A DNA stretch of 52,714 nucleotides from Bdellovibrionota bacterium FG-1 (GTDB taxonomy: Bacteria; Bdellovibrionota; UBA1018), in contig JBBCAW010000115.1 in assembly GCA_051382295.1 (NCBI GenBank), forward strand, positions 1-52,714, read 5' to 3'. The position numbers and the translations under genes are program-made. The notes under the pieces were generated by a model. That model made no database searches. It saw nothing but the letters and a program-made list of their open reading frames with translations, and had not been told where the DNA came from. Positions 216-41,565 of this stretch are shown here, in pieces (within the stretch, counting starts at the first letter, position 1; each line of letters opens with the position of its first letter).

Positions 216-251
216 CCATTTCCGATATGATAGTAACGGAGGAATTTTATT

Positions 252-545
252 ATGCCAGTCGCAAGAAAAGTGAATTTGAATGTCAATACGCTCGAAGACA
301 AAAAATTCGACAAAAAAAAAGGCCTCGTAAAAAAAGCGCAACCGGGTGGAGGTCCGGGCGATGGAGCTCATGAGGCATGTGCCCCAGGTGGTGGTCCTTG
401 TAAGCCTGATTGCCCAACGCCACCCTGCCAGACTTGTGATTGCAGTTGTAAAGGTGTGCCCAATGCAGGTCAAATGTCGCAGGGATTAAAGGGTGGAATT
501 ACGCCTAATGCGACCGGAGTCATGAGGGGAACAGTGAACCGTTAG
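252..545 (+). CDS. Cys/Gly/Pro-rich putative RiPP precursor peptide
   Basis: Strong RBS, Lys-rich N-terminal part, 7 Cys in pattern C-x6-C-x3-C-x4-C-x2-C-x-C-x-C, repeated PGGGP, directly upstream of an rSAM/SPASM gene. Confidence 0.75.
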   Translation: MPVARKVNLNVNTLEDKKFDKKKGLVKKAQPGGGPGDGAHEACAPGGGPCKPDCPTPPCQTCDCSCKGVPNAGQMSQGLKGGITPNATGVMRGTVNR

Positions 546-573
546 TTTAAACTGATTTTTTACACTGAAAGTG

Positions 574-623
574 ATAAATTACCCACCCCGCACTGGTGAA
601 CCAGTGCGGGGTGGGTAATTTAT
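574..623. terminator. 23-bp perfect inverted repeat (terminator/attenuator or mRNA-stabilising hairpin)
   Basis: ATAAATTACCCACCCCGCACTGG-tgaa-CCAGTGCGGGGTGGGTAATTTAT between precursor and rSAM genes. Confidence 0.8.
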
Positions 624-640
624 TCAATAGAGAGAAAACC

Positions 641-2197
641 GTGAGTGAATTTTTCGGCCATAAAAAGTTTCTTGTTCATCGTGATTATAAATACTTACTC
701 AAAAAATTCGACACTGGCTATTATCGGCAGATAGATCAATTTTTGGTTATTCCGTATAAAAATCGGAAAATTCTCGTGAATAGCTTCTTCATTCAGAATC
801 GGATCGATGACGAGGACGGTAGCGCCGAGGCGATCCTGAATCTGTTTTCTGAACCCCTCCCGTTTGTCCTTTTTCTAAAAAAGCTATCGGAACACTTCAA
901 GCTCGACTTAAATCTCCCTACTAAAGAAAATATCCGTCTGTTTTGTGATTTGCTCAGTATTACTCGTCTGTTGGTTGAAGACCATTTCTTGGTTTTCGAG
1001 TGTTTCAATGAGTATTCTCAGTTGAGCCAGTTTCGAAAAAATCTTTTACATACTCGTTTTGTCCATGTCGCGTATGTGATGACGTCACTTGATTGTAATT
1101 TCAGTTGCCCGGGGTGTTTTGTGTACAGTAATGCCCCGAAAAAGAAAATTCACATGACTCCGGAGGTGTTCGACCGTCAACTCGATTTTTTGATGCCGAA
1201 TGTCCTTAAATCGACGAGGGCTGAGTTGAGTTTCATTTTCTACGGTGGGGAGCCATTGTTGAATAAACCTCTCGTGGAATACGCTGCCGGAAAAATCAAA
1301 ACCTTGAAGAAAGAAGGGGCATTCGGGAAACGTAAAGTTGTCCTTAGCATGATTACCAATGCATCCCTTATTGATGAAAAAACGGTGGAGATATTTAAAA
1401 AATTCGATATCCAGCCGAGTATATCATTGGATGGGGTTGGAGAGACGCATGATGCTAACCGCGTGTTCAGTAGTGGTAGAGGAACTTTTGATGCTGTCCT
1501 GAAGGGTATTCGTCTGTTGGAGAAATATGACGTGGGATATGGAATTTCCTGCACTATAGGTCCGGACAATATTGATCGATTACCCACGGATCTCGATTGG
1601 ATGGTAAAAAATCTTAAGTTAAACGGCGGACTTTTTTTTAATATTATGCAGGGAGTGCCGAAGGATAGTTTTGGATCGCTGAGTTACGATACGTTCAAAA
1701 AGAAAATGCATATTATTTATGACAAGATGAACGAATTGGGACTGAGTGAAGGGCGTTTGAAACGGTATCGAATGACCACGTCGCATGACAAACCTCCGTA
1801 CGTTTTTTACTGTGCGGCAGCGGGAAGTGGCCAGTTTGTGTTTCGTCCAGATGGGAAAATCGGTCTATGTCATGCTGGAATGATGCACGATGAAGACCAA
1901 TTTGAATCGCCCGACGATATCGGCGAGATTTATCGCAATCCGATCCGACTCAAATGGCTACCCAGAACCCCTTTGCTTATGAAAGACTGCTATCTTAAGT
2001 GCCCTTATTTTGCTTTATGTGCGGGCGGGTGCCCTTATCGCGTGGAAAAAGCAACGGGGAATATGTATCGGCCCCATCCCCAGATTTGTGAAAAGGAAAT
2101 GTTTTTGATGGAAAGAGCGATTATGGAAGATTATGAGGCAACCTTGCGCTCTCAGACCAAGCGAGCAGCACCTGGCAAGCGTATCAAGAGGCGCTAG
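641..2197 (+). CDS. Radical SAM/SPASM peptide maturase with N-terminal extension (possible RRE)
   Basis: CNFSCPGC, FYGGEPLL, TN, SLDG..HD..R motifs and C-terminal C-x3-C-x5-C-x3-C-x18-C. Start moved to GTG 641 because the ORF-track start (596) lies inside the hairpin. Confidence 0.9.
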   Translation: MSEFFGHKKFLVHRDYKYLLKKFDTGYYRQIDQFLVIPYKNRKILVNSFFIQNRIDDEDGSAEAILNLFSEPLPFVLFLKKLSEHFKLDLNLPTKENIRLFCDLLSITRLLVEDHFLVFECFNEYSQLSQFRKNLLHTRFVHVAYVMTSLDCNFSCPGCFVYSNAPKKKIHMTPEVFDRQLDFLMPNVLKSTRAELSFIFYGGEPLLNKPLVEYAAGKIKTLKKEGAFGKRKVVLSMITNASLIDEKTVEIFKKFDIQPSISLDGVGETHDANRVFSSGRGTFDAVLKGIRLLEKYDVGYGISCTIGPDNIDRLPTDLDWMVKNLKLNGGLFFNIMQGVPKDSFGSLSYDTFKKKMHIIYDKMNELGLSEGRLKRYRMTTSHDKPPYVFYCAAAGSGQFVFRPDGKIGLCHAGMMHDEDQFESPDDIGEIYRNPIRLKWLPRTPLLMKDCYLKCPYFALCAGGCPYRVEKATGNMYRPHPQICEKEMFLMERAIMEDYEATLRSQTKRAAPGKRIKRR

Positions 2198-2703
2198 TTC
2201 ACCGCTTTGCGTGAATGCAAGAGTAGTTGCCAATAGGTTCCAATAGAGATGTAAAGGCTGAACGAGCTTTGCTCCTTTTTGTCTTCATCTCCCCATTTTT
2301 CTGTGGGGCTGAACTTTATTGTGATGGCTAGGCGTTGCGAATCTGTGTCGGTCTGAGTTTCCAATCGAGCAACGTGCATTTGATTGCCAATTTTCACCTG
2401 AATCCATTCTAATTTATGGTCGTATTTCGAATATTCATTGAGTAGCGCATAGTGTTCTTTTTTAACAGTTGCCATTAAAATGCGTTCGGGGATGGCACCA
2501 GCAAGCCAGGAACCAAGGCCTTTGATTTCAATTTTGACCGGATGTTGTAGAAAGAGAATGAGGAGCGAGAGGATAAAGATCAGAAAAAGGATCGTGCCCA
2601 CTAAAACTTTACGGCTCCCTTTTTTCATGTCAGCGGCGACCAGATTGTCGATAAATCGATCGAATGAACTGTTTGATTTTTTGTAGTGGGGTTGATTACT
2701 CAT
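2194..2703 (-). CDS. Single-TM accessory protein of the exporter (possibly HlyD-like remnant)
   Basis: Likely ATG at 2703 overlaps the end of the ABC gene; one hydrophobic helix VLVGTILFLIFILSLLILFL. Confidence 0.6.
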   Translation of the reverse strand: MSNQPHYKKSNSSFDRFIDNLVAADMKKGSRKVLVGTILFLIFILSLLILFLQHPVKIEIKGLGSWLAGAIPERILMATVKKEHYALLNEYSKYDHKLEWIQVKIGNQMHVARLETQTDTDSQRLAITIKFSPTEKWGDEDKKEQSSFSLYISIGTYWQLLLHSRKAVN

Positions 2704-4948
2704 ACAGTCCATCGAGTTTGATATTTCTGATAATCCGGTCGGTGCTGATCCGTGCATAGGGCAGTTCGCCTTGAAGGACTGCGAGTAGATGATCCGAGGA
2801 ACATTTCGAAACCTCCGCTGTGGGATGTAAGTTGACATTGGCCAGTAGAATACAGTCTAGTCGAATTGGGGGCGGCATTCCGGGATTTCTGGTGGGGTCC
2901 TGATGAATATCGTCTAATAGCTGAGAAATACAGGCATGGGCCTGCTGCGGATCCTTGCCAGGCATGAGAAGAAGAAACAAATCTTCAGTCCATCTGGCGA
3001 TATTATCGCCAAGGTGGATATTTCGAATCATCAACCATTCAATGTCGGTTGGTAGCGATGGGCTAGAAGGATGAGGTTCAGTTGAATGGCGGATGACAGC
3101 CAGGGCATAATGGGTGCCGTATTGAAATGCTCGTTCGTGTTCAATTTCAAGCGTGCTGATAAACTGGGACATGCCGCCAAATTGAGAGGAATGAAGCCGA
3201 AAAAACTCTCCCTTTTTTGAAATTAATTCGTGAAAAGTACCTAGTTCCAGGATCTGTCCCTCGGAAAGAACGACGATCATAGATGCATTACGGATTGTTG
3301 AAAGCCGGTGGGCAATGACCAAGACTGTCTTAGTCCGCGCTAGGCGAGTCATGACTTCCTGAATTCTATATTCACTGATAGGATCGAGAGCGGATGTGAC
3401 TTCATCAAATAGAAGAATTTCCGGATTCAGAAGAAGAACTCTCGCAAGAGTGATCCTTTGTTTCTGTCCTCCTGACAATTCTTCTCCTGATTCAAGCATG
3501 GTTTGCAAACCGTCTGGCAGCTTGCTGATAAATTCCATAGCAGAGGCCTCTTCGGCCGCTTGCAATATCGCCGCTACAGAGGCGTCGGGTTGGCCATAGG
3601 CGATATTGTCCTGAATGGTTCCTGAAATGATATGGCATTCCTGAGTTACGTAGCCGATTTTTTTTCTGAGTTCATGAATGCCAAATTCATTGATGTCTAT
3701 TTCATCAATAAGTATCTTACCTTGCTGACTTTTGTAAAAACGGAGAATGAGGTTAACCAAAGTACTTTTACCTGCGCCGCTAGGTCCCACCAGGGCAAGC
3801 ATTTTTCCGGGGACCACTTTTAAATTTATTTTTTTCAAGACGGGAATGTTTTCGTTAAAACCGAACGATACATCGCGGAATTCAACGACTCCTTTTTTGA
3901 TCCCGTCGTGGCTATTACCCGAAATTTCCTCTTCTTTTTGTTCCTGTTTCAGATTTAGTACATCATCCACTCTTCGGATTGAAAGCATTCCGATCCGCCA
4001 TGAAGTGTACGTGTTGATAAATGCCTTGATGGGGCTTCCAATTTGTCCTAAAAGCATGGTGAGACTGACAAACTCTCCGATGGTAAGCTGTCCTTGGATA
4101 ATTTGGTAACCCAGAAACCAGGATATTCCGACTGTCCAAAGCTGAACCGTGATTGAATTTGAGAACGTGGCAAATGTCTGAAGTATTCTTTCCTTGATTC
4201 CCAGTCGGGCATATCGGCGCATGATTCCATGAAATGCCTCAGTTTCCCGTTTTTCCTGACAGAATAATTTTGATAGCAGGACTAAACGAAGGCGTTCCTG
4301 AAGAAAATCGAAAGCTCCTGCTTTGAGTTTGAAAGATTGCTCCTGAACCGCGACGACACGTGAGGAGAAGACCTTGACTTCAATGAAATAGAGCGGCACT
4401 CCGCATAAGGCAAGCCAGGTGACCAATGGATTCATGGTGAAGGCGATATAAAGAATGGAGACCAAATGAAAAATATTGGCAATAAGAACCGGAATCAGAT
4501 CCATGGTCATGAATTCAAGCTGCGAGGTGTCTCCGGTGATGCGTGTGACATAATCTCCTTTAGTTAGCTTGCGGTATTCGATGACATCTATTCCCTGAAT
4601 GCGACTGAAGAGCTGTTTCTGTAGACCCAGAGTGAATTCCTGTCCTACGTAGATTTCCAGATAGGCGGCAAGTACATCCAGAATAAACTTGATGAAAAAG
4701 ATGCCGACAGATCCGATCATTGCGACATTCAGCAAGGAGATATCGCGCAACGGATAGGAATAATCGAATAATAGACGGCTGAACATGGGGACTAGGAGAT
4801 CGAGAGCTGAAATGACCAAATCGACAATGAGTACGGTCACTAGAATGTGTGCCCATGGTCGAATTCGACGAAGATGGGTGAAGTAGAGACATAAACCGGC
4901 ACTCATGGTGTCGTCGGAGATGTTTTTGAAAAGTTTTCGTGACCGCAC
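2696..4948 (-). CDS. ABC exporter (TMD+NBD) with C-terminal degenerate GGDEF-like domain
   Basis: TM region, Walker A GPSGAGKS, LSGGQ, LLFDE, IAHRLS; no N-terminal C39 peptidase; ~160-aa tail containing DNIARWTEDLFLLLMPG. Confidence 0.9.
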   Translation of the reverse strand: MRSRKLFKNISDDTMSAGLCLYFTHLRRIRPWAHILVTVLIVDLVISALDLLVPMFSRLLFDYSYPLRDISLLNVAMIGSVGIFFIKFILDVLAAYLEIYVGQEFTLGLQKQLFSRIQGIDVIEYRKLTKGDYVTRITGDTSQLEFMTMDLIPVLIANIFHLVSILYIAFTMNPLVTWLALCGVPLYFIEVKVFSSRVVAVQEQSFKLKAGAFDFLQERLRLVLLSKLFCQEKRETEAFHGIMRRYARLGIKERILQTFATFSNSITVQLWTVGISWFLGYQIIQGQLTIGEFVSLTMLLGQIGSPIKAFINTYTSWRIGMLSIRRVDDVLNLKQEQKEEEISGNSHDGIKKGVVEFRDVSFGFNENIPVLKKINLKVVPGKMLALVGPSGAGKSTLVNLILRFYKSQQGKILIDEIDINEFGIHELRKKIGYVTQECHIISGTIQDNIAYGQPDASVAAILQAAEEASAMEFISKLPDGLQTMLESGEELSGGQKQRITLARVLLLNPEILLFDEVTSALDPISEYRIQEVMTRLARTKTVLVIAHRLSTIRNASMIVVLSEGQILELGTFHELISKKGEFFRLHSSQFGGMSQFISTLEIEHERAFQYGTHYALAVIRHSTEPHPSSPSLPTDIEWLMIRNIHLGDNIARWTEDLFLLLMPGKDPQQAHACISQLLDDIHQDPTRNPGMPPPIRLDCILLANVNLHPTAEVSKCSSDHLLAVLQGELPYARISTDRIIRNIKLDGLYE

Positions 4949-5108: not shown

Positions 5109-5540
5109 ATGCCCCCGCACAGCCGCAAAAAACTTTTGATCTATCCCCAGTTTCAGCTTTTACTGATTGTTTCCAACCTGGTCATTTTACTGTCGAGTTT
5201 TGGCATTCTGTTGGGCTTAGTGTCCCAGGTTTTTTCTAAATTGGGTGACATGGGCACCCAGCTCAATCTTCCGCCCGGGCATTTGTTTTTTACCTTTATC
5301 CACACCCAAGCCAATAGCCTGCTTCTCTATCTTGCAATCGCAGTGGTGCTCAGCTGCTGTCTTTCCGTTGGAGTCATGCTCTGGCTGTCCCATCGTCTGG
5401 CGGGGCCCATGGTTCGCCTGCGGGCCGATCTCGAGCGGATGGCTCAAACCGGCGTGATCGGTGAGGTTAAATTTCGGAGTAACGATTTTCTGCAAGAATT
5501 GCCTGAAGCCGTCAACGCGGCCTTGAGTAAGTTCAGATGA
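5109..5540 (+). CDS. Two-TM membrane protein with HAMP-like C-terminus
   Basis: Two hydrophobic helices followed by SHRLAGPMVRL...RSNDFLQEL...N. Confidence 0.75.
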   Translation: MPPHSRKKLLIYPQFQLLLIVSNLVILLSSFGILLGLVSQVFSKLGDMGTQLNLPPGHLFFTFIHTQANSLLLYLAIAVVLSCCLSVGVMLWLSHRLAGPMVRLRADLERMAQTGVIGEVKFRSNDFLQELPEAVNAALSKFR

Positions 5541-5542
5541 GG

Positions 5543-5881
5543 CTAGCTGAGGTCAAGGACGTGTTTCAGCTTCTCATCGACTTCTTTCATAGTATCGACC
5601 GAGAGTTGCATGATGCGATTTTTCAGAAGGGCCTTTTCTAGCGAGTAAACGGCCCCACATCGAATGATCGTATCCTTTTTAAACTTCACAATCACGTCTT
5701 CGGCGGAGTTGGTGGCTTTCTTTGATTTGTCGTCTCGGTAGAGGCTTGTGAGCTTCACCGCTACGATGTCGAGCAAGCGGGGCGCGGAGTTTCGCAAATT
5801 GTTGCTGACGATTAAAACAGGTCGAATCGTGGCGTGTGGGTCAGTGGGCCAGGCGGCGTACCAGACTTCTCCGCGTTGCAT
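5543..5881 (-). CDS. mazF: PemK/MazF family toxin
   Basis: MQRGEVW...RPVLIVSNN...LTS and a C-terminal M.EVD..LK..LDL pattern. Confidence 0.85.
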   Translation of the reverse strand: MQRGEVWYAAWPTDPHATIRPVLIVSNNLRNSAPRLLDIVAVKLTSLYRDDKSKKATNSAEDVIVKFKKDTIIRCGAVYSLEKALLKNRIMQLSVDTMKEVDEKLKHVLDLS

Positions 5882-6169
5882 TTAAAATAGATCCTGATCT
5901 GCTTCTGCACTGCCTTCGTCCTCAGTAAAAAGCCGTTGGGACATGATCATGGCGGTGGAGACTCCTTTGGCGTCACGAGCCCTGGGGGGTGAAGCCGCAA
6001 GATCGCGGTCATACTGTTCGTAATCGCGCTTGAGCTGTTCTTCTTTTTCCTTGGTAAGCCCCTTTAAAATGAGTTCGTTCACTCGCTCACTCACTTTCTT
6101 AGATGGGGCGCCTTTCAATGCCTCTGCGGCCTCACCTTTGGGGTAAAAGGTAATTTTTACTGCTTTCAT
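5882..6169 (-). CDS. Putative antitoxin
   Basis: Abuts the toxin upstream; RHH-like N-terminus and acidic C-terminus. Confidence 0.65.
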   Translation of the reverse strand: MKAVKITFYPKGEAAEALKGAPSKKVSERVNELILKGLTKEKEEQLKRDYEQYDRDLAASPPRARDAKGVSTAMIMSQRLFTEDEGSAEADQDLF

Positions 6170-7083: not shown

Positions 7084-7135
7084 GCTACTGCTGCTTATGG
7101 CAATACTCCGTGCACCTCGGCGTGAATTGCAGCAC
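7084..7135. repeat. Direct repeat copy B (3' end of cytochrome gene)
   Basis: Aligns with 6286-6337. Confidence 0.9.
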
Positions 7136-8668
7136 GCGCGACGTGGATCGCAGACCCTGATTGTGGCACAAGCCCGTGGAGCCGCCACAGGTGGTGACCA
7201 TCGCGCCTATTTCGCTCGAGGATTTGTGATTCATGGGCCGCTGTCCGTTGGCATCCGTATAAAGGGGATTTCTCAGCACATAGAGCACATGTCCCGAAAT
7301 GACGCCTTTATGGAAGGTGAGGGATTTGTCATCCGTCGAAGGTCCCCAGCCATAACTGACCCCAGGCTCGGTCGAATAGGTCGTATGCGGATAGGCCCAG
7401 TGGCAAGAATAACAAAAGGAGGCCGCGCTGAGCACGGCTTTGGTTTGGGTTGAGTCCTTCCCCTCGCCGTGAGGGGTGTGGCACATAAAGCAGTCCGTTT
7501 GGGCGCCTTGGTCGATAAACGGAACCGGTGCGCCATGGCACTTCCAACAATAACCGTTATTTGACGTAAATTTCGACGAAAACCGCTTTCCGTGGGCATT
7601 GCCTTGAGCCCAGTCGCTCATATGAGTCACGCCGTCCGTATGGCAGTCTAGGCAATTTCGTTGGCCGACCGCCCGAGAAAAATCCGCACCATGACAACCG
7701 GCGCAGACCGACACCGTTCCGTTTTTCACTCTTTGGATAAAGGTGGCCGCGTGGACGGATTGAGTTCCTTCCGCGAGCCAGTTGGGCGTCAGATGAGGAT
7801 AGTTTTCGTGGCAGTTGAAGCAACCCATGCTCGTGCCTGATTTGTGGCAGACCACGCACTTGTTAGTGGCCGATGTATAGGCGCGCGCGGAGTAGGCGCC
7901 ATGCCCTGCGGGATCACCCCAATTGCCCGAATGGCTCACCCCCTGCGTGTGACAATCCACGCATGCCTTGCCCTTGAGTTTTCGGTCATAATTAGCGCCA
8001 TGGCAGGTGGCGCAGGCCATGATCGCTCCGACTTGCATTTCCAGCACAAAAGTGGCGGCATGCACGGACGCGGTTCCGGGTGCGGTCCAGTTCGGGTTGA
8101 GGTGGGGATAATCGGCATGGCATTTGTTGCAACTACTCGCATCGGCCGAGCCGCGAAGGTCAGCGCCGTGGCAAAGTCTGCAGCCCTGGGTGCCCGAATC
8201 CATCGCATACTGTCCGTGACCGGCGGGTTCCAGCCAGCCTTCCTTGTGTGGAAAGACGTCATGGCAGGAGGCGCACCCCACTTTGGATAAGCCGCCCCCC
8301 AGATCTGGCCCGTGACATTCGGTGGCGCAGAGTTTTATCGCCTGATCATTGATAAGTTTGCCTGTGCTTTTGATTCGCGCGGCATGCATCTCGGGCATCT
8401 TCCAGCCGGGCTCATGAGGGTAGTCCTCATGGCAGGAACGGCACTGGTTCTTGGCCGTGCTCGTGGTATCGTGACAGGTGGTGCATTGAGAAAGACCATT
8501 TTCAAGTGCAAAGACACCGTGGGACTCGGCCATCCTCCAACCTGTGTCGTGGGGATAGATCAAGGTCATGGCGGATTTTTCGACTTCTCGCTTCTGCGAA
8601 CAACCGACGAGCAGTAAGAGTAGCCCTGCTGTGAGGACGAGATTTTCGAAAAGTTTTCGTGGCTCCAC
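7085..8668 (-). CDS. Multiheme c-type cytochrome lipoprotein
   Basis: Lipobox LVGC; 14 CxxCH, 2 CxxxCH (CATECH, CTEYCH) and one Cx6CH; internal sequence duplications. Confidence 0.92.
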   Translation of the reverse strand: MEPRKLFENLVLTAGLLLLLVGCSQKREVEKSAMTLIYPHDTGWRMAESHGVFALENGLSQCTTCHDTTSTAKNQCRSCHEDYPHEPGWKMPEMHAARIKSTGKLINDQAIKLCATECHGPDLGGGLSKVGCASCHDVFPHKEGWLEPAGHGQYAMDSGTQGCRLCHGADLRGSADASSCNKCHADYPHLNPNWTAPGTASVHAATFVLEMQVGAIMACATCHGANYDRKLKGKACVDCHTQGVSHSGNWGDPAGHGAYSARAYTSATNKCVVCHKSGTSMGCFNCHENYPHLTPNWLAEGTQSVHAATFIQRVKNGTVSVCAGCHGADFSRAVGQRNCLDCHTDGVTHMSDWAQGNAHGKRFSSKFTSNNGYCWKCHGAPVPFIDQGAQTDCFMCHTPHGEGKDSTQTKAVLSAASFCYSCHWAYPHTTYSTEPGVSYGWGPSTDDKSLTFHKGVISGHVLYVLRNPLYTDANGQRPMNHKSSSEIGAMVTTCGGSTGLCHNQGLRSTSRVLQFTPRCTEYCHKQQ

Positions 8669-8692: not shown

Positions 8693-9646
8693 TCACTGCG
8701 GTTTTTTTGCAGTGGTCCAAAGTGCTTCGATTTTTTTAGCGAGGCTATCTTGGGTGACTGGTTTGACAAGATAGGCATTCACTCCCGCGGCGATAGCGGC
8801 TCTCACGTGGTCTCCATCTTGTTCGGTCGTAAAAATAATGACCCGCATGGCTTTGGATTTGTCAAAACCCCGGACCTGTTTCAGGAGTTCAAGACCGGAC
8901 ATTTTTGGCATGTTCCAGTCGGATAAAAGCAAGTCAAAAGGCTTGTTCATGTTGATGGCACCCTGAATGCCGAGCCAGGCCGCCTCTCCGTTGGTGGCTT
9001 CAATAATGTCATTCAGACCCATAGCGTTTAAAAATCTGACCACGCTTTTTCGGATCAGCGCGCTATCATCGGCTACCAAAATTCGAATATCGGAGGGAAG
9101 GCTGAGTTCGCATACTTGAGGCGCAAAAAAAGAAAACTCCCCATGAAAGACCCCATGCGGGGTGGTAAAGGGAATCGCGATGACCGCTTGACTGCTTAAC
9201 AGGGTTGGATTCATGCTGACCCCGGAAAAATAGACCGGGAATGCCGGCTCAACCACCAGCTCTTGTGATTTCATTTCCGAGGCCACCAAAGTCATCAGAT
9301 CCTGGGCCCATCTGGTCAAGCCCTCGGGCGGGCCGGAGGCAGGATCATAATCCACCTTTTGGGTCAGCTTCCAAAAAATTTGTTTAAAAATCTCGTTCTT
9401 AAAACTAAAGACCGCCAAGCCTTTGGCGGCTTTTCCTCCGAACTGTGCTACCACGGACACCTCCGCCGGGGGTAAACCGTCTAACTTGCGATGCCCGGGT
9501 TTTCCGGCGGTGGCCTCGACTCCGGCCCCCTCTCGCAAGAGCAGAATCGTGCTCCTGATCATCGTTTTGATGAACTGATCACTAGGAGCAAGAGGAGGAA
9601 GAGCAGAGGGAGTGGCGACAGAGGGGGCGGGGCTTTCATCGGTCAT
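8693..9646 (-). CDS. CheX-like domain fused to a CheY-like receiver
   Basis: N-terminal CheX-like pattern (..IAIPFTTPHG); C-terminal ILVADD, LLLSDWNMP, T and KP receiver motifs. Confidence 0.8.
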   Translation of the reverse strand: MTDESPAPSVATPSALPPLAPSDQFIKTMIRSTILLLREGAGVEATAGKPGHRKLDGLPPAEVSVVAQFGGKAAKGLAVFSFKNEIFKQIFWKLTQKVDYDPASGPPEGLTRWAQDLMTLVASEMKSQELVVEPAFPVYFSGVSMNPTLLSSQAVIAIPFTTPHGVFHGEFSFFAPQVCELSLPSDIRILVADDSALIRKSVVRFLNAMGLNDIIEATNGEAAWLGIQGAINMNKPFDLLLSDWNMPKMSGLELLKQVRGFDKSKAMRVIIFTTEQDGDHVRAAIAAGVNAYLVKPVTQDSLAKKIEALWTTAKKPQ

Positions 9647-9761
9647 ATGTACCTCGGGAGGGTAATTATGAAATTACACCTCTGTTTTTTCTTTTTCGCA
9701 AGGCTTCAGTTTGAGTGGGTCTAAGCCGACAAAACTATAAGCGTAATGGGCGAAAAGTAAA

Positions 9762-11942
9762 ATGACGGTGGAAGATGAAGGCCTGCTGAATAACATATCC
9801 GAGAATCTGATTCGGTCCCTTTCTGTTTTACTCGAAGACCCCGGATTGCTCGACAAAATTCAAAGCGAGTCCAAACAACTGACTAACAATGCAGCCAATA
9901 TCGCATCAGCAGGGGAGGAGATGGGCGCAACGATTGTTTCAATTGGTCAGAATGTACAAAATACCATTAAGGCCTCCAGTGCTGCAAAAAATCTCGCAAG
10001 CGAGGGTTCCGACGTCATTGATCGAACTTTGACAAAAATTAACGAGGTCGATGAAATTCTTACAAGCACCTCTTTGGCCTTGCAGGCGCTCTTGAAAACC
10101 ACGGAACAGGCCGGACGGAGTGTTAAGGTCGTCAGTGATATTTCGTCGAAAACGGATTTATTAGCGCTCAACGCCTCGATCGAGGCCGCTCGCGCGGGTT
10201 CTGCTGGAAAAGGGTTTGCCGTGGTGGCCCAAGAGGTAGGTCGACTTTCGGAAAAAACTCAAACCTCTATCAGTGAAATTGAAACGATTCTACGGAATAT
10301 CCCGGAAAATGTGAATGAAGTTTCTCAACGTCTTGAAAAAGGCGTGGGCACCGCCAAAAACTCAGTGAAAGAGGCGGCTCAGGCCAAACACAGCATTGCG
10401 GAAATTGTTAAACTCATTAATTCGGTTGATAACGAAGTATCGAATATCGGCGAGGCCATTCGAGACCAAGGTACGGCGATTACCAATATTGCGGTCAACA
10501 TCGATTATATTGAAGATCGAATTCGGGACGAAAACACGATCATACGTGGAGGGACGTTGAATTCGGCCCCGCCGCCTGCGCCGGATTTGGAGGTCGTGGT
10601 GGCGAAGGCCGTTGAGGTGCCTGTTGCCCCGACCAGTATCACGGCCCCCCTCCCGATTCAAAAAAGGTCGACCGAAGTGGAGAAACCTCAGCAGGCGTTA
10701 GCTGAGGTATTGCGCATTCCCTTACCGTTAGTTTCAGGTGCGTTGAATAATATTTGGGAAATATTTTTGATTCGGAATCAAATCGGTTATTTGTTCGACC
10801 AAGAACGTCCCATGTTGAAGGAGCGAACGGAGTTTTTGCAATCCTGGGAATTCTTGGATACGGCGCTCAAGCGGAATGTTTCGGAGCTTGAGAATGCCTT
10901 AATGGCGATGCGGCTAAATAATCTAAAACCCCTTTATGGCCGAATGGAAAAGTTGGTCCGTTCATACCTAGACGAACACAAAGAGAAAAAAGTCGAATTT
11001 TTGACCGCCGGTGAGTCGATGGAGCTCGATAAGAAGGTGATTGACGTTTTGGGAGAGCCCCTGATTCACTTGATTAGAAACTCCCTTGATCATGGGATAG
11101 AAACCGCGGACATGCGAGTGAAGCTTGGAAAGCCTCCGTGTGGAACCCTTCGATTATCCACGGAGCTACAGGCCGATCAGGTTTTGGTTAAGATTCAGGA
11201 TGATGGCAACGGAATCGATGGGGCTAAACTGATCGAAAAGGCACGAGGCAAAAAGATCGACGTCACGCCCTATCTTCAGGGGATCTCGCCGGTGGAAATT
11301 ATTTTCCTGCCTGGGTTTTCTACGGCCGAGAAAGTGACCGACGTTTCCGGCCGGGGAATCGGTATGGATGCTGTCCGTCATTCCGTGGGCGAACTGGGTG
11401 GATCGATCGAGATAGATACGGAAGTCGGTATGGGTACAACTTTTTCGATTTATTTACCGCTGAGCCTTTCGGTTGTTCCAGCGGCTTTGTTTCGGGTCAA
11501 TTCGGAGATTTTTGGTGCGCACATTAATTCGGTATTAGAGGTCTGTCGAGTGCGTAAGGAGGAGCTTAAGCAGAGTAATGGTCAGACCTATTTTCTTTTT
11601 TGAGATGAGTTTATTCTTTGCTATGATCTTCGCGACTATTTGTTGGTCAATGCCCGTAAACCAGAGGTCATTTTGGCGGAAGCTGAAATATCCCTTTTTG
11701 TGGTTCGGAGTCGGAAGGAGTTTTTTGCTCTGCGGGTGGATGCGATCGTTAGCAATACGGAGGTGGTCGTCAAACAGTGGCCCGCGCTGTTACCGAAGGT
11801 AGAGTTTATGTTGGGAATGTCTATTCTCCCCACCGGAAAAGCGGTCTTTGTTTTATCTCTGAATCAATTGGTGGATTCGATTCACCTTGGGCAGATGAGG
11901 GTAGAGCGACTCAACCGCGAGAACGATCATGTCGCAGCTTAG
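9762..11942 (+). pseudogene. cheA: MCP signalling domain fused to CheA (P3-P4-P5), no Hpt domain, in-frame TGA at 11601-11603
   Basis: [24 protein letters not shown] (MCP); [28 protein letters not shown] (CheA). After YFLF* the same frame continues DEFILCYDLR... into the P5 domain (ORF 11640-11942). Confidence 0.85.
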
Positions 11943-12447
11943 AACGATTTTTGGTGAGCAGAATCAAAAGTTGGCCGCCAGGGAGCGATCGGCGGCGGAT
12001 CAGGAAGAGCTGGTTACGCTCCTGTCTTTTATGATTCAAGATTCTGTATTTGCAGTCCCTCTTCATTGTGTTCGAGAGATCGTAGAAGGTGTTCAGATTA
12101 CCCTGTTGCCCGTGCCATGCGACCCTTATATTGCGGTTCTGAACCTACGGGGAACCCTGGTACCTATTCTTGCACAGATCGTCGTAAATCCTCGGGTTAA
12201 AGAAGATGTTTTGGGTGAACAAAAGCAGAGGCGGTATGTCATTTTTGAAACTGAGTCAAAACAACCTTTTGCTTTAGAGGGGACCCGTTTCAGGCGACTT
12301 GAATTTGAGCCGAGCCGTATCCCAGGGGGAGTTCAGCCGTTTTTGACTGTCATCGCAAATGCTGGCGAGCCCATTCAATTGATTAATTATCATGGTCCAG
12401 AGGGGTGCGCCTTGCTGGCGAGCATGCCAAGGGGCCCCCATTCATGA
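11929..12447 (+). CDS. cheW: CheW
   Basis: FAVPLHCVREI...LNLRGTLVPI. Confidence 0.85.
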   Translation: MSQLRTIFGEQNQKLAARERSAADQEELVTLLSFMIQDSVFAVPLHCVREIVEGVQITLLPVPCDPYIAVLNLRGTLVPILAQIVVNPRVKEDVLGEQKQRRYVIFETESKQPFALEGTRFRRLEFEPSRIPGGVQPFLTVIANAGEPIQLINYHGPEGCALLASMPRGPHS

Positions 12448-34284: not shown

Positions 34285-35472
34285 TTACTCTTCTTTATCG
34301 TCGTCTTGCTTGTCGTCGTTGCCGGTCCCGTCCGGTGCCTGGGTAAAGGAGCTTCCAGCCCGCTCCATCACTTCGGCCTCGGGCAGTACGCGGAGGGTGT
34401 CAGTCGCCCCTTCGATCTCGATCCCAGCTAGCCGGATATACCGAGCCATGGTTGCGAGGTCTTTCCACCCACAGACTTTTTGAATCCGAATCGGCGCTAC
34501 GCCGCTGCGAATTAACTGCGTGGCAAAGCACGCTCGGAGGGTGTGAAAACGAATCGAAGGAAGACCTATACCTATGCAGAATTCCCGAAGCCGGGTGGCC
34601 TGCATCCCTCGGCTCCAGCACCCGATTCGGGGAAGGATCGAGGGCCGGTCGCCCGCTTGGGCCTTCAGCTCTTTGAGCACAGTCATCAGATCGCCAGATA
34701 TCGGCACCGTCCGCCAGTCGCCGGATTTCGTGCTCTTAATGAGCTTCCTCCGACAATTGAAGGATTTTGTTACCGATAGCTGTTTGTTCTCCCAATCTAC
34801 GTCACCCCAGAGCAGGGCGTACAGTTCACCGCTTCTCATGCCGGTGAGTAATGCCAATGTCCAGATCGGGTACCACCGTGATTTCAGATTGCGGGCCTCG
34901 GTGAGTAACTTACGAATTTGTTCCAGCGTGAGGATTTCGGGCTTCCTTTCCTCTTTTCGTTGGATCGTGATTCCGTAGGTTGGTGCTCGGTCGATGCCTT
35001 TAATCAAACCTCGCTCCATGCCGTAGGCGAAAACGCGATGAATCGTGTTTTTTGTCTTAGCAAGAAAGCTATTGGAAGAACCATTGGCTTTGAGCTGACC
35101 AAAAAGTTCTTGAATGTCGCCGCGAGTGATCTCGTTTGCGCTTCTCTTCCACCAATGACTGGTGTGTTTTACGAGAGACGCTACGTAGTCTTTGCGGGTT
35201 TCATCTAAAACTTGCTCGGTCGTTTCTAAGCTCAGGTGCTTGGACCATGCTTCTACTACTGCGCCCCAGCTCGACCCTTGCGTTTCTTTTTTCAAAACTT
35301 CGGCCTGACAGTCCCGAAGCAGCTTCACTTCCTCACGTTCCGCTTGCTTCAAGGTCTTGCAACCGAACTTCCATCGCTGGAGACGAATGCCGGGGTTGAC
35401 TCTACTTCTCACGCAGACGTAAGCTTTCCAGAGCTTTTCACCTGCATCAGACTGATATTCCATGATTGCCAT
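34285..35472 (-). CDS. int: Tyrosine integrase
   Basis: TGMRSGE, K, HTLR, GW and Y catalytic residues; RBS GGGAGGT before ATG 35472. Confidence 0.95.
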   Translation of the reverse strand: MAIMEYQSDAGEKLWKAYVCVRSRVNPGIRLQRWKFGCKTLKQAEREEVKLLRDCQAEVLKKETQGSSWGAVVEAWSKHLSLETTEQVLDETRKDYVASLVKHTSHWWKRSANEITRGDIQELFGQLKANGSSNSFLAKTKNTIHRVFAYGMERGLIKGIDRAPTYGITIQRKEERKPEILTLEQIRKLLTEARNLKSRWYPIWTLALLTGMRSGELYALLWGDVDWENKQLSVTKSFNCRRKLIKSTKSGDWRTVPISGDLMTVLKELKAQAGDRPSILPRIGCWSRGMQATRLREFCIGIGLPSIRFHTLRACFATQLIRSGVAPIRIQKVCGWKDLATMARYIRLAGIEIEGATDTLRVLPEAEVMERAGSSFTQAPDGTGNDDKQDDDKEE

Positions 35473-35473
35473 G

Positions 35474-35716
35474 CTACCTCCCAAATGAGAGGGCAGAGGG
35501 TTTAAGGATATGGTCGAGGTCACTTCTTAAAAATCGGAGCCGATTGCGGATTCGGTAAAAGTTCACCTGCCCGCGCCAAACCATATTTCGGATTTGGCCA
35601 ACCGACACACGAAGATAAAAAGCGGCCTCCTTTGAGGTCATCCATTTCAGCTTGTCAAAGATCAGTGCCTCTGAAGTTTCGTAAGAAACGTCAAGGGCTG
35701 TTTCTCCCTTTTTCAT
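35474..35716 (-). CDS. Excisionase-like HTH protein
   Basis: WMTSKEAAFYLRVS...IRN.V..G...RLRF...DLD. Confidence 0.85.
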   Translation of the reverse strand: MKKGETALDVSYETSEALIFDKLKWMTSKEAAFYLRVSVGQIRNMVWRGQVNFYRIRNRLRFLRSDLDHILKPSALSFGR

Positions 35717-35717
35717 A

Positions 35718-36131
35718 TCATTCAACCCCATTTTCCGCGAGTAAAATGCGTTTTTCTTTCGTCTTCCCGGTCTTTCGTTCTGCGCGTACGACGGGGCGAT
35801 GGCGTGCAATGATCTCTGTGAGCGTGGTTGATTCGCCACGACTTTGTGTCGCTTTTAACTCTCGCAAAGCCCACTCAGCAAAACGCACTTCATCGAAAAA
35901 CGCGGTTTCAAGTCCGCGAAGTTCAGCGGGGGACAACAGGGTGTCATGATGACAAAGCAACCAATTGACGAGCTGATTGCGGCTTAGGGTGATTTTTCGC
36001 CCTTCAAGTTCATCCACCCAGGCGTTGACTCGTTCGAGGGCTTGTGCGTTAATTGTGATACGGTCGGGGTTACGCGTATGGGGTTTTGTTGGTTCAGCAG
36101 TCGGCGTTGCCGATTCTAAGGCATGCTCCAT
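35718..36131 (-). CDS. Hypothetical ICE protein (possible RHH/relaxosome accessory)
   Basis: In the operon; N-terminal strand-helix-helix pattern. Confidence 0.6.
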   Translation of the reverse strand: MEHALESATPTAEPTKPHTRNPDRITINAQALERVNAWVDELEGRKITLSRNQLVNWLLCHHDTLLSPAELRGLETAFFDEVRFAEWALRELKATQSRGESTTLTEIIARHRPVVRAERKTGKTKEKRILLAENGVE

Positions 36132-36355
36132 ACGCTCCCCCTTTCAAGGACCCAGATGTAGTGGCCTTGGATATATTTTCCATCTTCAATTTTATCCTCC
36201 TGCCAAACTTTGCGAACCACAGGCGCCGTGAGTTTAGGTGAATCCGGATCTGTGGAAACAAGACCTGAAGGCGAGGCTTCAATTTTTTGAACTTTGCCAG
36301 GGCTGGCGCAGCCTGAGAGTGTCATGAGAAATAGAATGAGAACGATAGAACGCAT
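36116..36355 (-). CDS. TraV/VirB7-like lipoprotein
   Basis: Lipobox LSGC; P.VRKVW...GHYIWV motif. Confidence 0.7.
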   Translation of the reverse strand: MRSIVLILFLMTLSGCASPGKVQKIEASPSGLVSTDPDSPKLTAPVVRKVWQEDKIEDGKYIQGHYIWVLERGSVWSMP

Positions 36356-36436
36356 GAAGACTCCTGAAGTCCTGCATGGGAGCAGGACGGTTTTGTAAAT
36401 AGAGTGACGGGGCTGTGAATAGGGCAGAATGCCTAT

Positions 36437-37306
36437 TCAGTAGCGGTTTGCGTCCAAATCGAGCGGACGCCAAGTGGCGGATGTATGAGGCGATTTTCGA
36501 GTGTCTAATAAAAATTTTGCGCTAACTGGATAGCGGGAAGTTAGCGGTTTTTCTCCAAGTAAAAAACCAATCGATTTTCCTTGTTCTGGTCCACATTCAA
36601 TAGGGGCCTCCCAACCTGCTTGAACAAAAGCGAGGTAACTTACGAAGTTATGGATCATGGGTCGACCGCGAAGGGCATTCGCGATCTTGGAGTGGAGATT
36701 GTGACTTGTGGCTTCGACGGGAGTAAGCCAAAGCACGCGAATGACCTGGGGCTCGCCCGCGTAAAAATCCGCGATGATCTCGTATTCTACCTCTTTTTTG
36801 CGCGAGAGCTCAACCTCCAAAGCCACGGTTGCCATGGGTCGGCCAATGGGGACATACCAATAGCCATCGGGACGATGACGATCTGAGCGCGGCACCCACG
36901 GTGGATAGAATTCTAACGGAAGGCGCCGCAATTCTTGTTCGGAGAAAAGCGCGGTTCCATCAGGGACGTTGTGCATGAAATTCCCTAGGTGAATGGCGGT
37001 CGTCACAAGATCGTGCAGTAAGTTCTCAGATTTGAAGCCTTCCTCCTTTAGCGGGGGTAATGTCTTTTGAACCCGCTCAAACCCTTGACGGGTGAGAGTC
37101 CAGATATGGCAGCGCGCGATCCGATCCGAATTACACTGGATAAAGCTCGCCCGCTCAAGTTGCCACAATCTGACGTACGCGCTTTGTGGGGTAAAACTGG
37201 GAAAGATCGCGCGCGCGATGCCCGCAGTGGTGCAGACCTTCCATTTCCAGAGAAAATACAGAAGCTCCCGATCGCGTGGATTCAAATTGAGTTTAGTGGG
37301 TTTCAT
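36437..37306 (-). CDS. Replic_Relax (MOBC-like, PD-(D/E)XK) relaxase
   Basis: N-terminal wHTH (RD..LL..L), HDL, RPDG, LEVE..RK. Confidence 0.75.
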   Translation of the reverse strand: MKPTKLNLNPRDRELLYFLWKWKVCTTAGIARAIFPSFTPQSAYVRLWQLERASFIQCNSDRIARCHIWTLTRQGFERVQKTLPPLKEEGFKSENLLHDLVTTAIHLGNFMHNVPDGTALFSEQELRRLPLEFYPPWVPRSDRHRPDGYWYVPIGRPMATVALEVELSRKKEVEYEIIADFYAGEPQVIRVLWLTPVEATSHNLHSKIANALRGRPMIHNFVSYLAFVQAGWEAPIECGPEQGKSIGFLLGEKPLTSRYPVSAKFLLDTRKSPHTSATWRPLDLDANRY

Positions 37307-38789
37307 GATTCACTTCATCGTCTCCATGGATGGGTAATGGTTCAATTGGCGTAAGGGGCGCGATTTCAGCCACGGAAGCCCCGGGCACGCGATGTTCTTT
37401 GAGAAGTTCATTCGTCTCCTCAATGCTCAAGTAAGGGACCTGGACTTCCGTCATTTCAGCGCCACTTTTCCATATGGCCCGTCCTGAAATGGGCGGAAGG
37501 TCGGAGGCGCGACCGACCCCTAAAACAGTGATACTCGAGGTATCGTTTTGCATTTGAAAGCAGAGAACGCCTGTGAGGTTGGCTTTGACTTGTGGATCCA
37601 GGGCTCGGCTATCGGGGCGTTGGGTGGCAATGACGAGGTGAACACCTACGCTGCGGCCAAGGCGCGCAATTTGGCTCAAAACTCCTCGGGCGCGTTGGAT
37701 GTCGGCGCTCTTGGCGTGGTGGCCCGCCAAGAACATTTCGGCGGCTTCATCGATGATGATCACCTGCCGAGCAAGGGAAACCTGGGGTCGCATCGCCTGG
37801 TAAGCATCGATGTCCTTGCACCCGTGCTCCTTCAAAAGGACCATCCGCTTTTTTAGTACATCTTCGGCGCGGACAAGGGCGGCAATGGCACGCTCTACAT
37901 CCGGAATCACATGGGCCCGCTTTAAGTTCTCAAAAATCTGAAACTCGATTCCCCCCTTCAAGTCAATGAGGGTAAATTCAAGATCCGACTGATTGAGGTA
38001 AAGGGTTACGATCATTTCGCGCAGAAAGCTCGATTTACCACCGCCAGTTTGACCGGCGACTAGCAGGTGGGGGACTTCGCGAAAAGATGCAGTCAGTTGG
38101 CGCGCTCGCGTTTTTCCCACCGCAAAATGAAGGGCTGGGATCCCACGAATGTTATCAAGTTGCGCAAATGTTGGCATGGGGCAATGCGCATAGATCAGGT
38201 CGAGCGTCCCGCTCTCACGGTTTTCTCGAATTTCGTCGACATAGACTTGGAGCGCACTTTCAAGCTGAGGCCTGGCCTTCTCAAATTGAGCAAAGGATAG
38301 CCCTGCTCGATAAAGTCTCATCTTCCTCGTAAACGCGTCCACGGGCTTATCGAAGATGAATTTGGGTAGGCTCCCAAGCGGGCTTTTTAGGCCTGCATCG
38401 ACAAAAACTCGGGTGAGGCGCTCAATGAGGTCGTTTCTCAGTTTCATTTCTCGGAGTGCCCAGCCCCAAAAGCCCAGCGTGAGCATCGCGGTACAGTAAG
38501 GCCAATAGAACATCGGGCGATACGGATAGATTACGCTCAGATGAGCTGCCGCGAATATTCGTTGGTCCACATGGGTGGCGATAAAGAGGCCGGCCGTGCT
38601 TCCTAGGGCAAGGGCCTCGGCCCATGGAAATGACCCTGCGCGAATCGCATGAATGAGTTCAACGGTTGGCTGGTAAATGAGGGTTCCAATATTCTCGGTG
38701 AGCTTCAATAGATCCAGGTGAGCCAGGGTGTCGATGGGTGATGGAGACCGTGTAGATACACGAATAGGGCGTTGTGGGTTTGAATTCAT
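37293..38789 (-). CDS. FtsK/SpoIIIE (TcpA-like) coupling ATPase
   Basis: N-terminal TM segments; PHLLVAGQTGGGKS, IDLKGG, IIDE, ATQRP. Confidence 0.9.
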   Translation of the reverse strand: MNSNPQRPIRVSTRSPSPIDTLAHLDLLKLTENIGTLIYQPTVELIHAIRAGSFPWAEALALGSTAGLFIATHVDQRIFAAAHLSVIYPYRPMFYWPYCTAMLTLGFWGWALREMKLRNDLIERLTRVFVDAGLKSPLGSLPKFIFDKPVDAFTRKMRLYRAGLSFAQFEKARPQLESALQVYVDEIRENRESGTLDLIYAHCPMPTFAQLDNIRGIPALHFAVGKTRARQLTASFREVPHLLVAGQTGGGKSSFLREMIVTLYLNQSDLEFTLIDLKGGIEFQIFENLKRAHVIPDVERAIAALVRAEDVLKKRMVLLKEHGCKDIDAYQAMRPQVSLARQVIIIDEAAEMFLAGHHAKSADIQRARGVLSQIARLGRSVGVHLVIATQRPDSRALDPQVKANLTGVLCFQMQNDTSSITVLGVGRASDLPPISGRAIWKSGAEMTEVQVPYLSIEETNELLKEHRVPGASVAEIAPLTPIEPLPIHGDDEVNHETH

Positions 38790-38794
38790 AAAAA

Positions 38795-39715
38795 TTAGTC
38801 CTTTTTGAAAATGATAAAGAGGGGAGTGGTGGCAGGAATTTCATATACGGGGGGCCGATTCTTCATATCGGACATGATTTCTCGGGATTGTTCGAGGGCG
38901 GCAGTGGCGGCTCCGTTGAGCATCGCGTTTTTGAGAGTAGGCTTGGTGATCACAGCTCCGTTTTCGCCTTGGGTATCCTGAAGTGCGGCACTCATGCCGC
39001 CCACAAAATTGAGGCCAATTCCCATTCCTAGTTTGAGGGCCTGGCTTCCGACCTGGGAGCCTTTGAGGCCCGGAATTTTGTCAGACGCGTCGCAACCTTG
39101 GGCATCGACAGTTTCCACCGCGCCGTCTTGAAAGACCATCTGCGTGAATTGGATCATCAGCCGGTTTTCGCCCGATTGGCCGGAACCCAGTAACAGGGTT
39201 CCTTGAGGGACGAGGGTTTCACCGCCAAAAGAAAGGGTTTCTACGATCTCCGCGCGCACCGGACCATTGGAAGCACCGGACACCAGCACGGCTTTGACCA
39301 TCGCGCCGGGCGGAATCTTGACTGCGCGGGGACGGGCCACGACTTGCGGTCCTCGAAACTTCGAGCGCGTTGAACGGGATGGATCAGACGTGGTTCCAGA
39401 CCCATCGATTTGGGGTGCGGGGCTTGTTTCATCGCGCGAGCGAAGTTCAGGAATGGTTATCGTGGCGGAGCCGCCGACATCAGATGGGGGTGCAAAGGCG
39501 GGACGAGCCGAAGTGTTTGGGGCGGGCTCCGGCGTATTTTGCACAAGAAGTAGGCCCGCAACGCAGCCAAAGGAAATGCCAGTACCCAACAAAACACGGT
39601 GAGAGACGAGGGTACGTTTTCGTCCATCATCGCGGTAAAAGAGGCCGCGCCCCCATTGGCGGAGGCGGCTCTTGGCCTCCGTCGTGGTTGTGACCTTCAG
39701 TATTTCGTCACTCAT
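38795..39715 (-). CDS. VirB10/TrbI-like protein
   Basis: TM plus Pro-rich linker plus IPPG...L.G...PV.A...VPQGT.L.G. Confidence 0.8.
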   Translation of the reverse strand: MSDEILKVTTTTEAKSRLRQWGRGLFYRDDGRKRTLVSHRVLLGTGISFGCVAGLLLVQNTPEPAPNTSARPAFAPPSDVGGSATITIPELRSRDETSPAPQIDGSGTTSDPSRSTRSKFRGPQVVARPRAVKIPPGAMVKAVLVSGASNGPVRAEIVETLSFGGETLVPQGTLLLGSGQSGENRLMIQFTQMVFQDGAVETVDAQGCDASDKIPGLKGSQVGSQALKLGMGIGLNFVGGMSAALQDTQGENGAVITKPTLKNAMLNGAATAALEQSREIMSDMKNRPPVYEIPATTPLFIIFKKD

Positions 39716-41563: not shown

Positions 41564-41565
41564 CG

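Follow-up and report, generated by a model that had tools for sequence, protein, structure and literature searches.

Several systems are known in which an enzyme with a radical S-adenosylmethionine (rSAM) core and a SPASM domain modifies a peptide that is synthesized ribosomally and modified post-translationally (RiPP). SCIFF precursors are defined by six Cys in 45 residues, and triceptides by an aromatic core residue (omega-x-x). For the thioether-forming CrpC of Methanococcus voltae, a seven-Cys SPASM domain with an open iron site at auxiliary cluster I (AuxI) has been described; its thioethers go to varied, not only acidic, motifs and the product is kept as a protein (PMC13692751). In PapB the open AuxI iron serves Cys binding (PMC12373016), and cyclopropyl synthases require a GYW motif, which is an AuxI ligand (PMC10878394). 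Here we analyzed a 52,714 nt stretch (the window), the entire contig C115 (JBBCAW010000115.1) of the 4.44-Mb genome of Bdellovibrionota bacterium FG-1. Near its start, a gene for a 97-aa, Cys-rich precursor peptide is followed by one for an rSAM/SPASM maturase. The pair is real and represents a rare family, so far without a name, of rSAM/SPASM systems with Cys-rich peptides; FibroRumin is nearest to it. By analogy with characterized enzymes, we consider it rather probable that the locus is a horizontally acquired RiPP cassette for a thioether-stapled peptide.

The features of the pair are, in window coordinates:

238..242, forward strand: Shine-Dalgarno sequence GGAGG of the precursor gene, 9 nt 5′ of the ATG, read from the sequence
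252..545, forward strand: precursor open reading frame (ORF), 97 aa with seven Cys, read from the sequence; no Pfam or NCBIfam match
378..449, forward strand: Cys core, residues 43–66, with a distal half of the form CxxCxCxC and a single CX3D (C59–D63)
574..623, forward strand: perfect inverted repeat of 24 bp that parts the precursor gene from the maturase gene (RNA fold −48.1 kcal/mol, z −8.85)
641..2197, forward strand: maturase of 518 aa with RiPP recognition element (RRE), radical SAM and SPASM domains, identified by Pfam Radical_SAM, clade membership and fold
731..1000, forward strand: RRE-like domain, approximately residues 31–120, with three strands and three helices (DSSP of the model)
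1094..1117, forward strand: CxxxCxxC motif of the S-adenosylmethionine (SAM) cluster, C152/C156/C159, invariant in 15/15 sequences
1811..2089, forward strand: SPASM domain with seven Cys (391, 410, 450, 454, 460, 464 and 483)

The precursor comprises a leader (residues 1–42, net charge +4), a core from C43 to C66 and a Gly-rich, Cys-free follower (net charge +4). Eight Lys fall within residues 1–28, PGGGP units occupy residues 31–35 and 45–49, and the Cys lie at positions 43, 50, 54, 59, 62, 64 and 66 (spacing 6-3-4-2-1-1). An initial annotation of the window had described the strong ribosome binding site, Lys-rich N-terminus, paired PGGGP units and Cys-free tail of this 97-aa ORF, and all were confirmed, the tail being 31 aa long. 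As a chance control we examined the 174 small, Shine-Dalgarno-led ORFs that lie outside long frames genome-wide: six have at least three Cys in 14 aa, and the precursor ORF has the most (five in 14 aa) and is directly 5′ of the only clade enzyme in the genome. A precursor homologue search with five candidates returned self matches only, a profile of four precursor peptides retrieved only three proteins, all of them inputs judging from length and contig, and Atlas matches for the precursor were all <0.8 and uninformative. A promoter scan did no better than chance (5 promoters vs a mean of 8.8), and Rfam gave one sub-threshold chance match only.

Of 139 homologues of the maturase at E ≤ 1e-20, 15 in addition to its own sequence are set apart (E ≤ 2e-105, 39–50% identity), the next homologue following at E 4e-55. 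When 1.84 billion representatives were searched with a profile of 15 clade sequences, a single further full-length member (P0122) was gained and the gap was reproduced. In a midpoint-rooted FastTree tree of 46 sequences (344 columns), from which CteB and TigE were left out, all 16 full-length members group into a single clade (support 0.983). Against NCBIfam, the maturase matched 63 families and was below the cut-off in all of the best 25, with top scores for FibroRumin (144.8, cut-off 400), PapB (130.4, cut-off 340) and CefB (115.1, cut-off 600). Scores were lower for CrpC (TIGR04463; 84.2, cut-off 525), GrrM (79.1, cut-off 310) and SCIFF (TIGR03974; 72.1, cut-off 425), and the AlbA and SkfB models were not among the best 25. 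The clade enzyme of the metagenome locus L013 scored 119.4 against the FibroRumin maturase model TIGR04136, also under the cut-off of 400.

The pair passes none of the SCIFF, PapB, FibroRumin, CrpC and cyclopropane-synthase tests and belongs to none of the named families tested. Thus no match to a defined family, the outcome that the initial annotation had set against its own proposal, was found in these tests. The precursor, a 97-aa, seven-Cys peptide that matches no family, is not of the SCIFF type. The general features of rSAM/SPASM RiPP systems are present, namely the CxxxCxxC core and SPASM domain, an RRE and a small precursor ORF conserved beside homologues. Our literature search found nothing describing the clade by title or abstract start, with subscription journals mostly outside its coverage. 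In the RODEO precursor table of PMC10288494, neither CDCSC nor CPQDC has a row, and CVCSC is found in one unrelated singleton.

We identified clade members at five metagenome loci (L011 to L015). Two of these (L014 and L015) lie entirely inside the enzyme gene, which leaves three informative loci, and in 3/3 of them a Cys-core ORF with cationic, Lys/Arg-rich arms adjoins the rSAM homologue; the conserved synteny that had been suggested as a check is therefore seen. In L013, a 72-aa ORF directly 5′ of the clade enzyme has the core DCGQRCPQDCDSGS, a net charge of +18 and no aromatic residue. L011 encodes two clade enzymes with two ORFs of 69–70 aa between them; the core of these ORFs is DCTNICVCSCFSGS, their net charge is +11/+12, and behind each lies the decayed remnant of a clade-enzyme gene (E 3e-5; 0.002–0.005). 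In L012, the end of a partial 3-Cys ORF with an Arg-rich tail is preserved at the contig edge. A sister-group enzyme (L209, E 3.6e-83), recovered from 25 genomes around G823, is accompanied by a 60-aa precursor with a core resembling DC...CxCxC...CxSGS. The relatives' precursors share the three-part design, Cys is their main conserved core residue, and both arms are retained in every complete one. The window precursor has diverged from them (24–29% in alignment). PGGGP was considered as a family motif and rejected, as the units are private to the window copy and absent from relatives. L011 and L013 also encode B12-dependent C-methyltransferases above the TIGR03975 cut-off of 281.85 (318.5 and 390.7, respectively); the host genome has no member above the cut-off (best 94.7).

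Other features of these loci were noted. The decayed rSAM pieces of L011 (6131–6295 and 6834–6887) lie in ~500-nt units that are 78% identical. Directly 5′ of its intact clade enzyme P0003 is a gene (9372–9893, forward strand) for an acidic, secreted-looking 173-aa protein with a four-Cys C-terminal domain and no NCBIfam match. In L209, the precursor (1204–1386) has a YVPP leader and is followed, as judged by eye, by a peptidase-PqqD-fusion-like gene (1471–3015) and a GNAT-like gene (3006–3785).

The distal CxxCxCxC of the window core is the common motif of the wider branch, because Cys-core ORFs occur across its loci. A small Cys-containing ORF is present at 68 of the 131 loci with enough upstream DNA (159 loci in total), a count from a lenient filter run without a control, which includes chance ORFs; about 22 of the best-scoring ones show clear CxCxC-type cores by eye. 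Among these are true FibroRumin peptides, encoded in Kosakonia (L103, with scores of 51.8 and 59.1 bits vs a cut-off of 45), and similar peptide/enzyme pairs are found in Campylobacter (L135), Patescibacteria and others. Of the original proposal of an undescribed RiPP family, the unnamed clade and the conserved pairing thus stand, and the distal motif proved to be common property of the surrounding superfamily. The idea that a Gram-negative host is unusual for such products was not borne out, given the Kosakonia and Campylobacter examples. Among distant relatives, long CxxC-repeat precursors lie 3′ of rSAM/SPASM genes in L116 (9845–10207) and L148 (3504–3839), and a conserved CGVxGCCP ORF of ~62 aa lies 5′ of distant rSAM relatives in L132, L149, L164, L165, L167 and L169, mostly Patescibacteria.

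The most likely start of the maturase is GTG 641, because homologues align from there. GTG 596 was considered and rejected, as it lies inside the perfect 24-bp hairpin. None of 200 shuffles of the hairpin folds as well, and it is absent from the terminator scan listing. It is a probable terminator/attenuator or mRNA-stabilizing element, which would yield an excess of precursor over enzyme.

An AlphaFold model of the maturase (pLDDT, the score predicted for the local distance difference test, 85.4) had its best structural match in CteB (Z 32.2, root-mean-square deviation 3.3, 429 aligned). Model residues 31–501 align to CteB 1–450, and thus the N-terminal part is an RRE; the rSAM/SPASM enzyme with an N-terminal extension of the initial annotation holds as an enzyme, and the extension is reassigned. 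About 30 clade-specific residues precede the RRE-like domain. All 16 clade enzymes retain the three SAM-cluster Cys and the seven SPASM Cys with no conserved eighth, from which an open iron site at AuxI is predicted. The six catalytic-proximity residues, as defined in PMC10288494 and mapped via the CteB alignment, are F160-Y201-I238-S262-H411-A412 (F-Y-I-S-H-A). They are identical at 5/6 positions to the FibroRumin enzyme of L103 (F-Y-I-S-H-G), at 3/6 to CteB (F-F-T-S-H-Q) and at 2/6 to the sactisynthase StsB (Y-T-I-S-K-L). The paralogous clade enzyme P0008 of L011 (2943–4469) has an altered SPASM loop (CPCC) and Q-S at proximity positions 5–6, changes that may mean a different task.

Complex prediction for maturase and precursor lent their binding weak support, with 0.50 vs 0.01 for the best control (contact agreement ≥24%, partner pLDDT ≥37), a mark reached by 116/157 solved and 2/215 mismatched pairs. 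Of the pairs that reached it, only 18 solved ones scored ≤0.60, as did both mismatched ones, and part of the score may be owed to likeness to solved CteB-leader (RRE-leader) complexes. An acidic RRE matching the cationic leader was also considered and rejected, since the net charge of the N-terminal region is positive (+2 to +17) in 16/16 clade enzymes.

By analogy, the seven-Cys SPASM domain and the F-Y-I-S-H-A residues favor thioether stapling, which is the best inference for the chemistry, and we are moderately confident that the enzyme works like CteB, PapB and CrpC. A number of observations weigh against this assignment. The Ranthi-like enzymes GggB and QmpB form S-Calpha links (PMC10288494). 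The His at proximity position 5 is retained in only 9/16 clade members, and the window precursor lacks the CxSGS ending found in L011, L013 and L209. Conserved acceptor residues are lacking: CX3D/E occurs at 1/7 Cys of the window precursor and at 0/14 Cys in four related ORFs, a rarity that argues against a simple PapB-like reading. No literature on “FibroRumin” was found, and so no biochemical study of that branch. The top sequence match among solved structures is the cyclopropane synthase TigE (117.6 bits vs 102.2 for CteB), which Foldseek also ranks first, and the cyclophane synthase ChlB (Z 30.6) is structurally close to CteB, ahead of anSME (28.5) and TigE itself (28.4). The fold therefore does not fix the chemistry.

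The likeness to TigE and ChlB would suit an enzyme that forms C–C or C–O links at non-Cys residues (cyclopropanes as TigE/TvgB, cyclophanes as ChlB/GrrM), with the free Cys making a metallothionein-like peptide. Runs of CxCxC can bind metals. However, the GYW motif is absent from 46/46 aligned sequences, which have EGR at that position, and the system has neither TIGSVS nor TVGG repeats. The core residue that is conserved is Cys, and aromatic residues are lacking in the window core (43–66) and in the entire L013 peptide, which argues against cyclophane chemistry and excludes triceptide chemistry there. We regard links at non-Cys residues as highly improbable.

The same pair could instead perform another Cys chemistry, either S-Calpha (sactionine) links to Gly, Ser or Pro or a new radical reaction of the Cys, for example oxidation to a thioaldehyde or to formylglycine as in anSME. 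In favor of this, there is no conserved acidic acceptor, the CxSGS ending is recurrent, Gly-rich PGGGP units flank the window core, and both the S-Calpha-forming Ranthi-like enzymes and the structural match to anSME point the same way. However, the proximity residues agree with StsB at just two positions, the CxCxCx4GxGxG motif is absent, AlbA and SkfB do not appear among the best NCBIfam matches, and anSME is without an RRE, its alignment not beginning until residue 140. Another Cys chemistry is thus unlikely, though less so than links at non-Cys residues.

Under thioether stapling, the maturase would bind the precursor through its RRE, as the modelled complex tentatively suggests. By analogy, a core Cys thiolate would bind the open AuxI iron and a 5′-deoxyadenosyl radical would abstract H from a nearby residue. 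At least one S–C thioether staple would then form, with a loss of 2 Da each, most likely of the non-alpha (ranthionine) type as in CteB, PapB and CrpC. Because no peptidase is encoded and every complete relative retains the two arms, the product is probably a full-length stapled miniprotein, or one trimmed by a host protease.

Convergent to the maturase are two genes that could export the peptide:

2194..2703, reverse strand: single-transmembrane (TM) protein of 169 aa, whose start overlaps the stop of the next gene and whose stop overlaps the maturase stop (2194–2197)
2696..4948, reverse strand: ATP-binding cassette (ABC) exporter with ABC_membrane and ABC_tran domains (Pfam) and an extra C-terminal domain of ~160 aa

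The arrangement of a convergent ABC exporter and single-TM protein was as first annotated, with a corrected start for the latter: on sequence grounds ATG 2703 is more likely, and ATG 2838 was rejected in its favor. The TM protein matches neither a Pfam nor an NCBIfam family above cut-off. By language-model features (Atlas) it scored 0.94–0.95 against unnamed clusters and 0.90 against those of the HlyD family, which serves as a lead only, and its single-sequence model was poor (pLDDT 54.6). It is a probable mini membrane-fusion adaptor (HlyD/LcnD_C-like). The C-terminal domain of the ABC protein (2696–3181, reverse strand) is weakly GGDEF-like (SiaD diguanylate cyclase, E 0.0033). A C39 peptidase domain was not found in the ABC protein, which is therefore outside the peptidase-containing ABC transporters, and the only C39 match of the genome is weak, partial and on another contig (E 6.3e-7).

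We infer that the ABC protein and the mini-HlyD adaptor, with a host TolC, would on balance export the peptide in this host. The competing view, that the two are separately acquired neighbors and the product stays intracellular, falls somewhat short of even probability and is compatible with either chemistry. It draws on the counts of 0/5 clade loci with an ABC match and 0/159 loci with the adaptor, which speak against an exporter shared by the family; however, flanks long enough to judge by are confined to L011 (10 kb upstream, 0.67 kb downstream) and L013 (~5.8 and 5.2 kb). The genes are convergent and so on a separate transcript, the ABC protein combines the lack of a peptidase with an odd C-terminal domain, and its plasmid relatives are generic exporters (30–33% identity). 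On the other hand, both genes have a GC content as low as that of the enzyme gene, their stop codons overlap at the junction with it, and 74/74 genomes of the family lack the adaptor, as they do the ABC C-terminal domain and the enzyme. The host carries several TolC-family genes, and export by an ABC protein, a membrane-fusion protein and TolC is used by Gram-negative peptides (PMC10352776). A dedicated exporter, as initially annotated, is thus plausible for the window copy, and the evidence so far does not make it a trait of the family.

GC content is 43–45% in the enzyme, adaptor and ABC genes and 50% in the precursor gene, compared to 51% for the genome. The clade enzyme was found in none of 60 relatives or 400 genomes of the host phylum, in none of 401 and 251 genomes around G410 and G412 (overlapping samples that are not independent), and in none of 79 genomes around G825. 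Among 15 relatives on viral contigs none is a clade member, and a scan of genome contigs had no clade member among the 80 loci listed (best segments ≤35%). The next gene beyond the exporter (5109–5540) is present in 67/74 family genomes. The low GC and the absence from the family and phylum samples, with a common flanking gene, fit joint acquisition, and the cassette was probably acquired horizontally. The host encodes LpxC and is thus a diderm.

If acquired recently, the cassette might be a reduced, possibly silent remnant without a product in this host. Such decay would accord with the divergence of the precursor and with the lack of an above-cut-off counterpart of the L011 and L013 C-methyltransferases. 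However, all four frames are intact, the ten cluster Cys are kept, the Shine-Dalgarno sequence is strong and the spacer hairpin is perfect, so we give this explanation only a slim chance.

Elsewhere in the window, a segment of 216 nt (5179–5394) shares 99% identity with the end of a contig of G815, a genome of another genus, where it lies beside transposase-like ORFs; this is a recent transfer or a binning artefact. The contig edge (1–215) holds a C-terminal fragment of a histidine kinase, with similarity only from about residue 21 of the open frame. Farther downstream are a PemK/MazF-type toxin with a probable antitoxin (5543–6169) and a multiheme cytochrome lipoprotein (7085–8668). Integrase- and conjugation-like genes, recognized by eye from translations, occur at ~34300–44700 and are not adjacent to the cassette.

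A bolder possibility, which we consider very unlikely though somewhat less so than a silent remnant, is an uncleaved “cationic-arm” RiPP design. In such a design a short, variable core would be modified while the product keeps its Lys/Arg-rich arms for binding to nucleic acid or membranes, and the Cys chemistry would have no fixed acceptor and might be new. The window copy would perhaps have swapped an Arg-rich follower for a Gly-rich tail that acts as an uncleaved C-terminal signal to the peptidase-less ABC/mini-HlyD exporter. L013 uses the same design with a second, unrelated, RRE-less SPASM enzyme and a non-Cys core. That second system consists of a 91-aa, Lys/Arg-flanked ORF with a twice-repeated HxEYVD core (11878–12153, reverse strand), located 5′ of an anSME/DynA-like SPASM enzyme (10621–11724, reverse strand; 146.1 and 145.7 bits, below cut-offs), and possibly forms His/Tyr cross-links. 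At the end of this second cluster is a 69-aa, Lys/Arg-rich ORF with a strong Shine-Dalgarno sequence and no Cys core (9298–9507, reverse strand).

The pair gives a testable enzyme–substrate family within the large branch of rSAM/SPASM maturases of Cys peptides that comprises FibroRumin and its relatives. Because the clade takes cores of 3–7 Cys without a fixed acceptor, its enzymes might staple peptides with unusual tolerance or carry out a new Cys chemistry, and its relatives add B12-dependent C-methylation. Unless its chemistry or its cationic-arm design turns out to be new, a specialist would count the family as a further unnamed member of an established class.

Among named systems, FibroRumin (maturase TIGR04136, peptide TIGR04135) is the most similar, with the best score, near-identical proximity residues, an E-x-R before the SPASM domain and CxxCxCxC cores. 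Unlike it, the window enzyme is far below the family cut-off (144.8 vs 400) and lies in a separate, supported clade, and the window, L011a and L013 peptides have no TIGR04135 match at E ≤ 10, whereas the L103 controls pass. The FibroRumin peptides seen are 49–56 aa, acidic and often in tandem, whereas the clade peptides are 69–97 aa with a cationic leader and follower. The SCIFF maturase CteB (PDB 5WGG/5WHY) shares the full-length RRE, rSAM and SPASM architecture, the seven-Cys SPASM domain and half of the proximity residues; it differs in sequence (17% identity) and has Phe152 and Thr186 where the window enzyme has Tyr and Ile, and the window precursor, in contrast to the six-Cys-in-45 type, has a long follower.

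PapB (freyrasin; NF047865) gave the second-best NCBIfam score and the window core has one CX3D, whereas PapA repeats CXXXD (PMC12373016); no support for a conserved PapB arginine was found there. CrpC shares the seven-Cys SPASM domain and the predicted open AuxI site, whereas its substrate CrpA is large with a 17-residue repeat (PMC13692751) and the window substrate is a short peptide without repeats. TigE and TvgB (PDB 8VPO; PMC10878394, PMC9062424) share an RRE and a seven-Cys SPASM domain and lead the sequence and Foldseek matches, and they differ in the GYW motif, which the clade lacks, and in their TIGSVS or TVGG repeats. In contrast to the hairpin sactipeptide systems (StsA/BlaA, AlbA and SkfB), the window pair has neither a CxCxCx4GxGxG core nor group-1 proximity residues, and in contrast to the triceptide systems (GrrM/XyeB/ChlB) it has no aromatic residue in the core and a GrrM score well under the cut-off. 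The traits that distinguish the family from these systems are cationic arms flanking a variable core, the lack of a peptidase, optional B12-dependent methylation in relatives and, in the window copy, a peptidase-less export pair.

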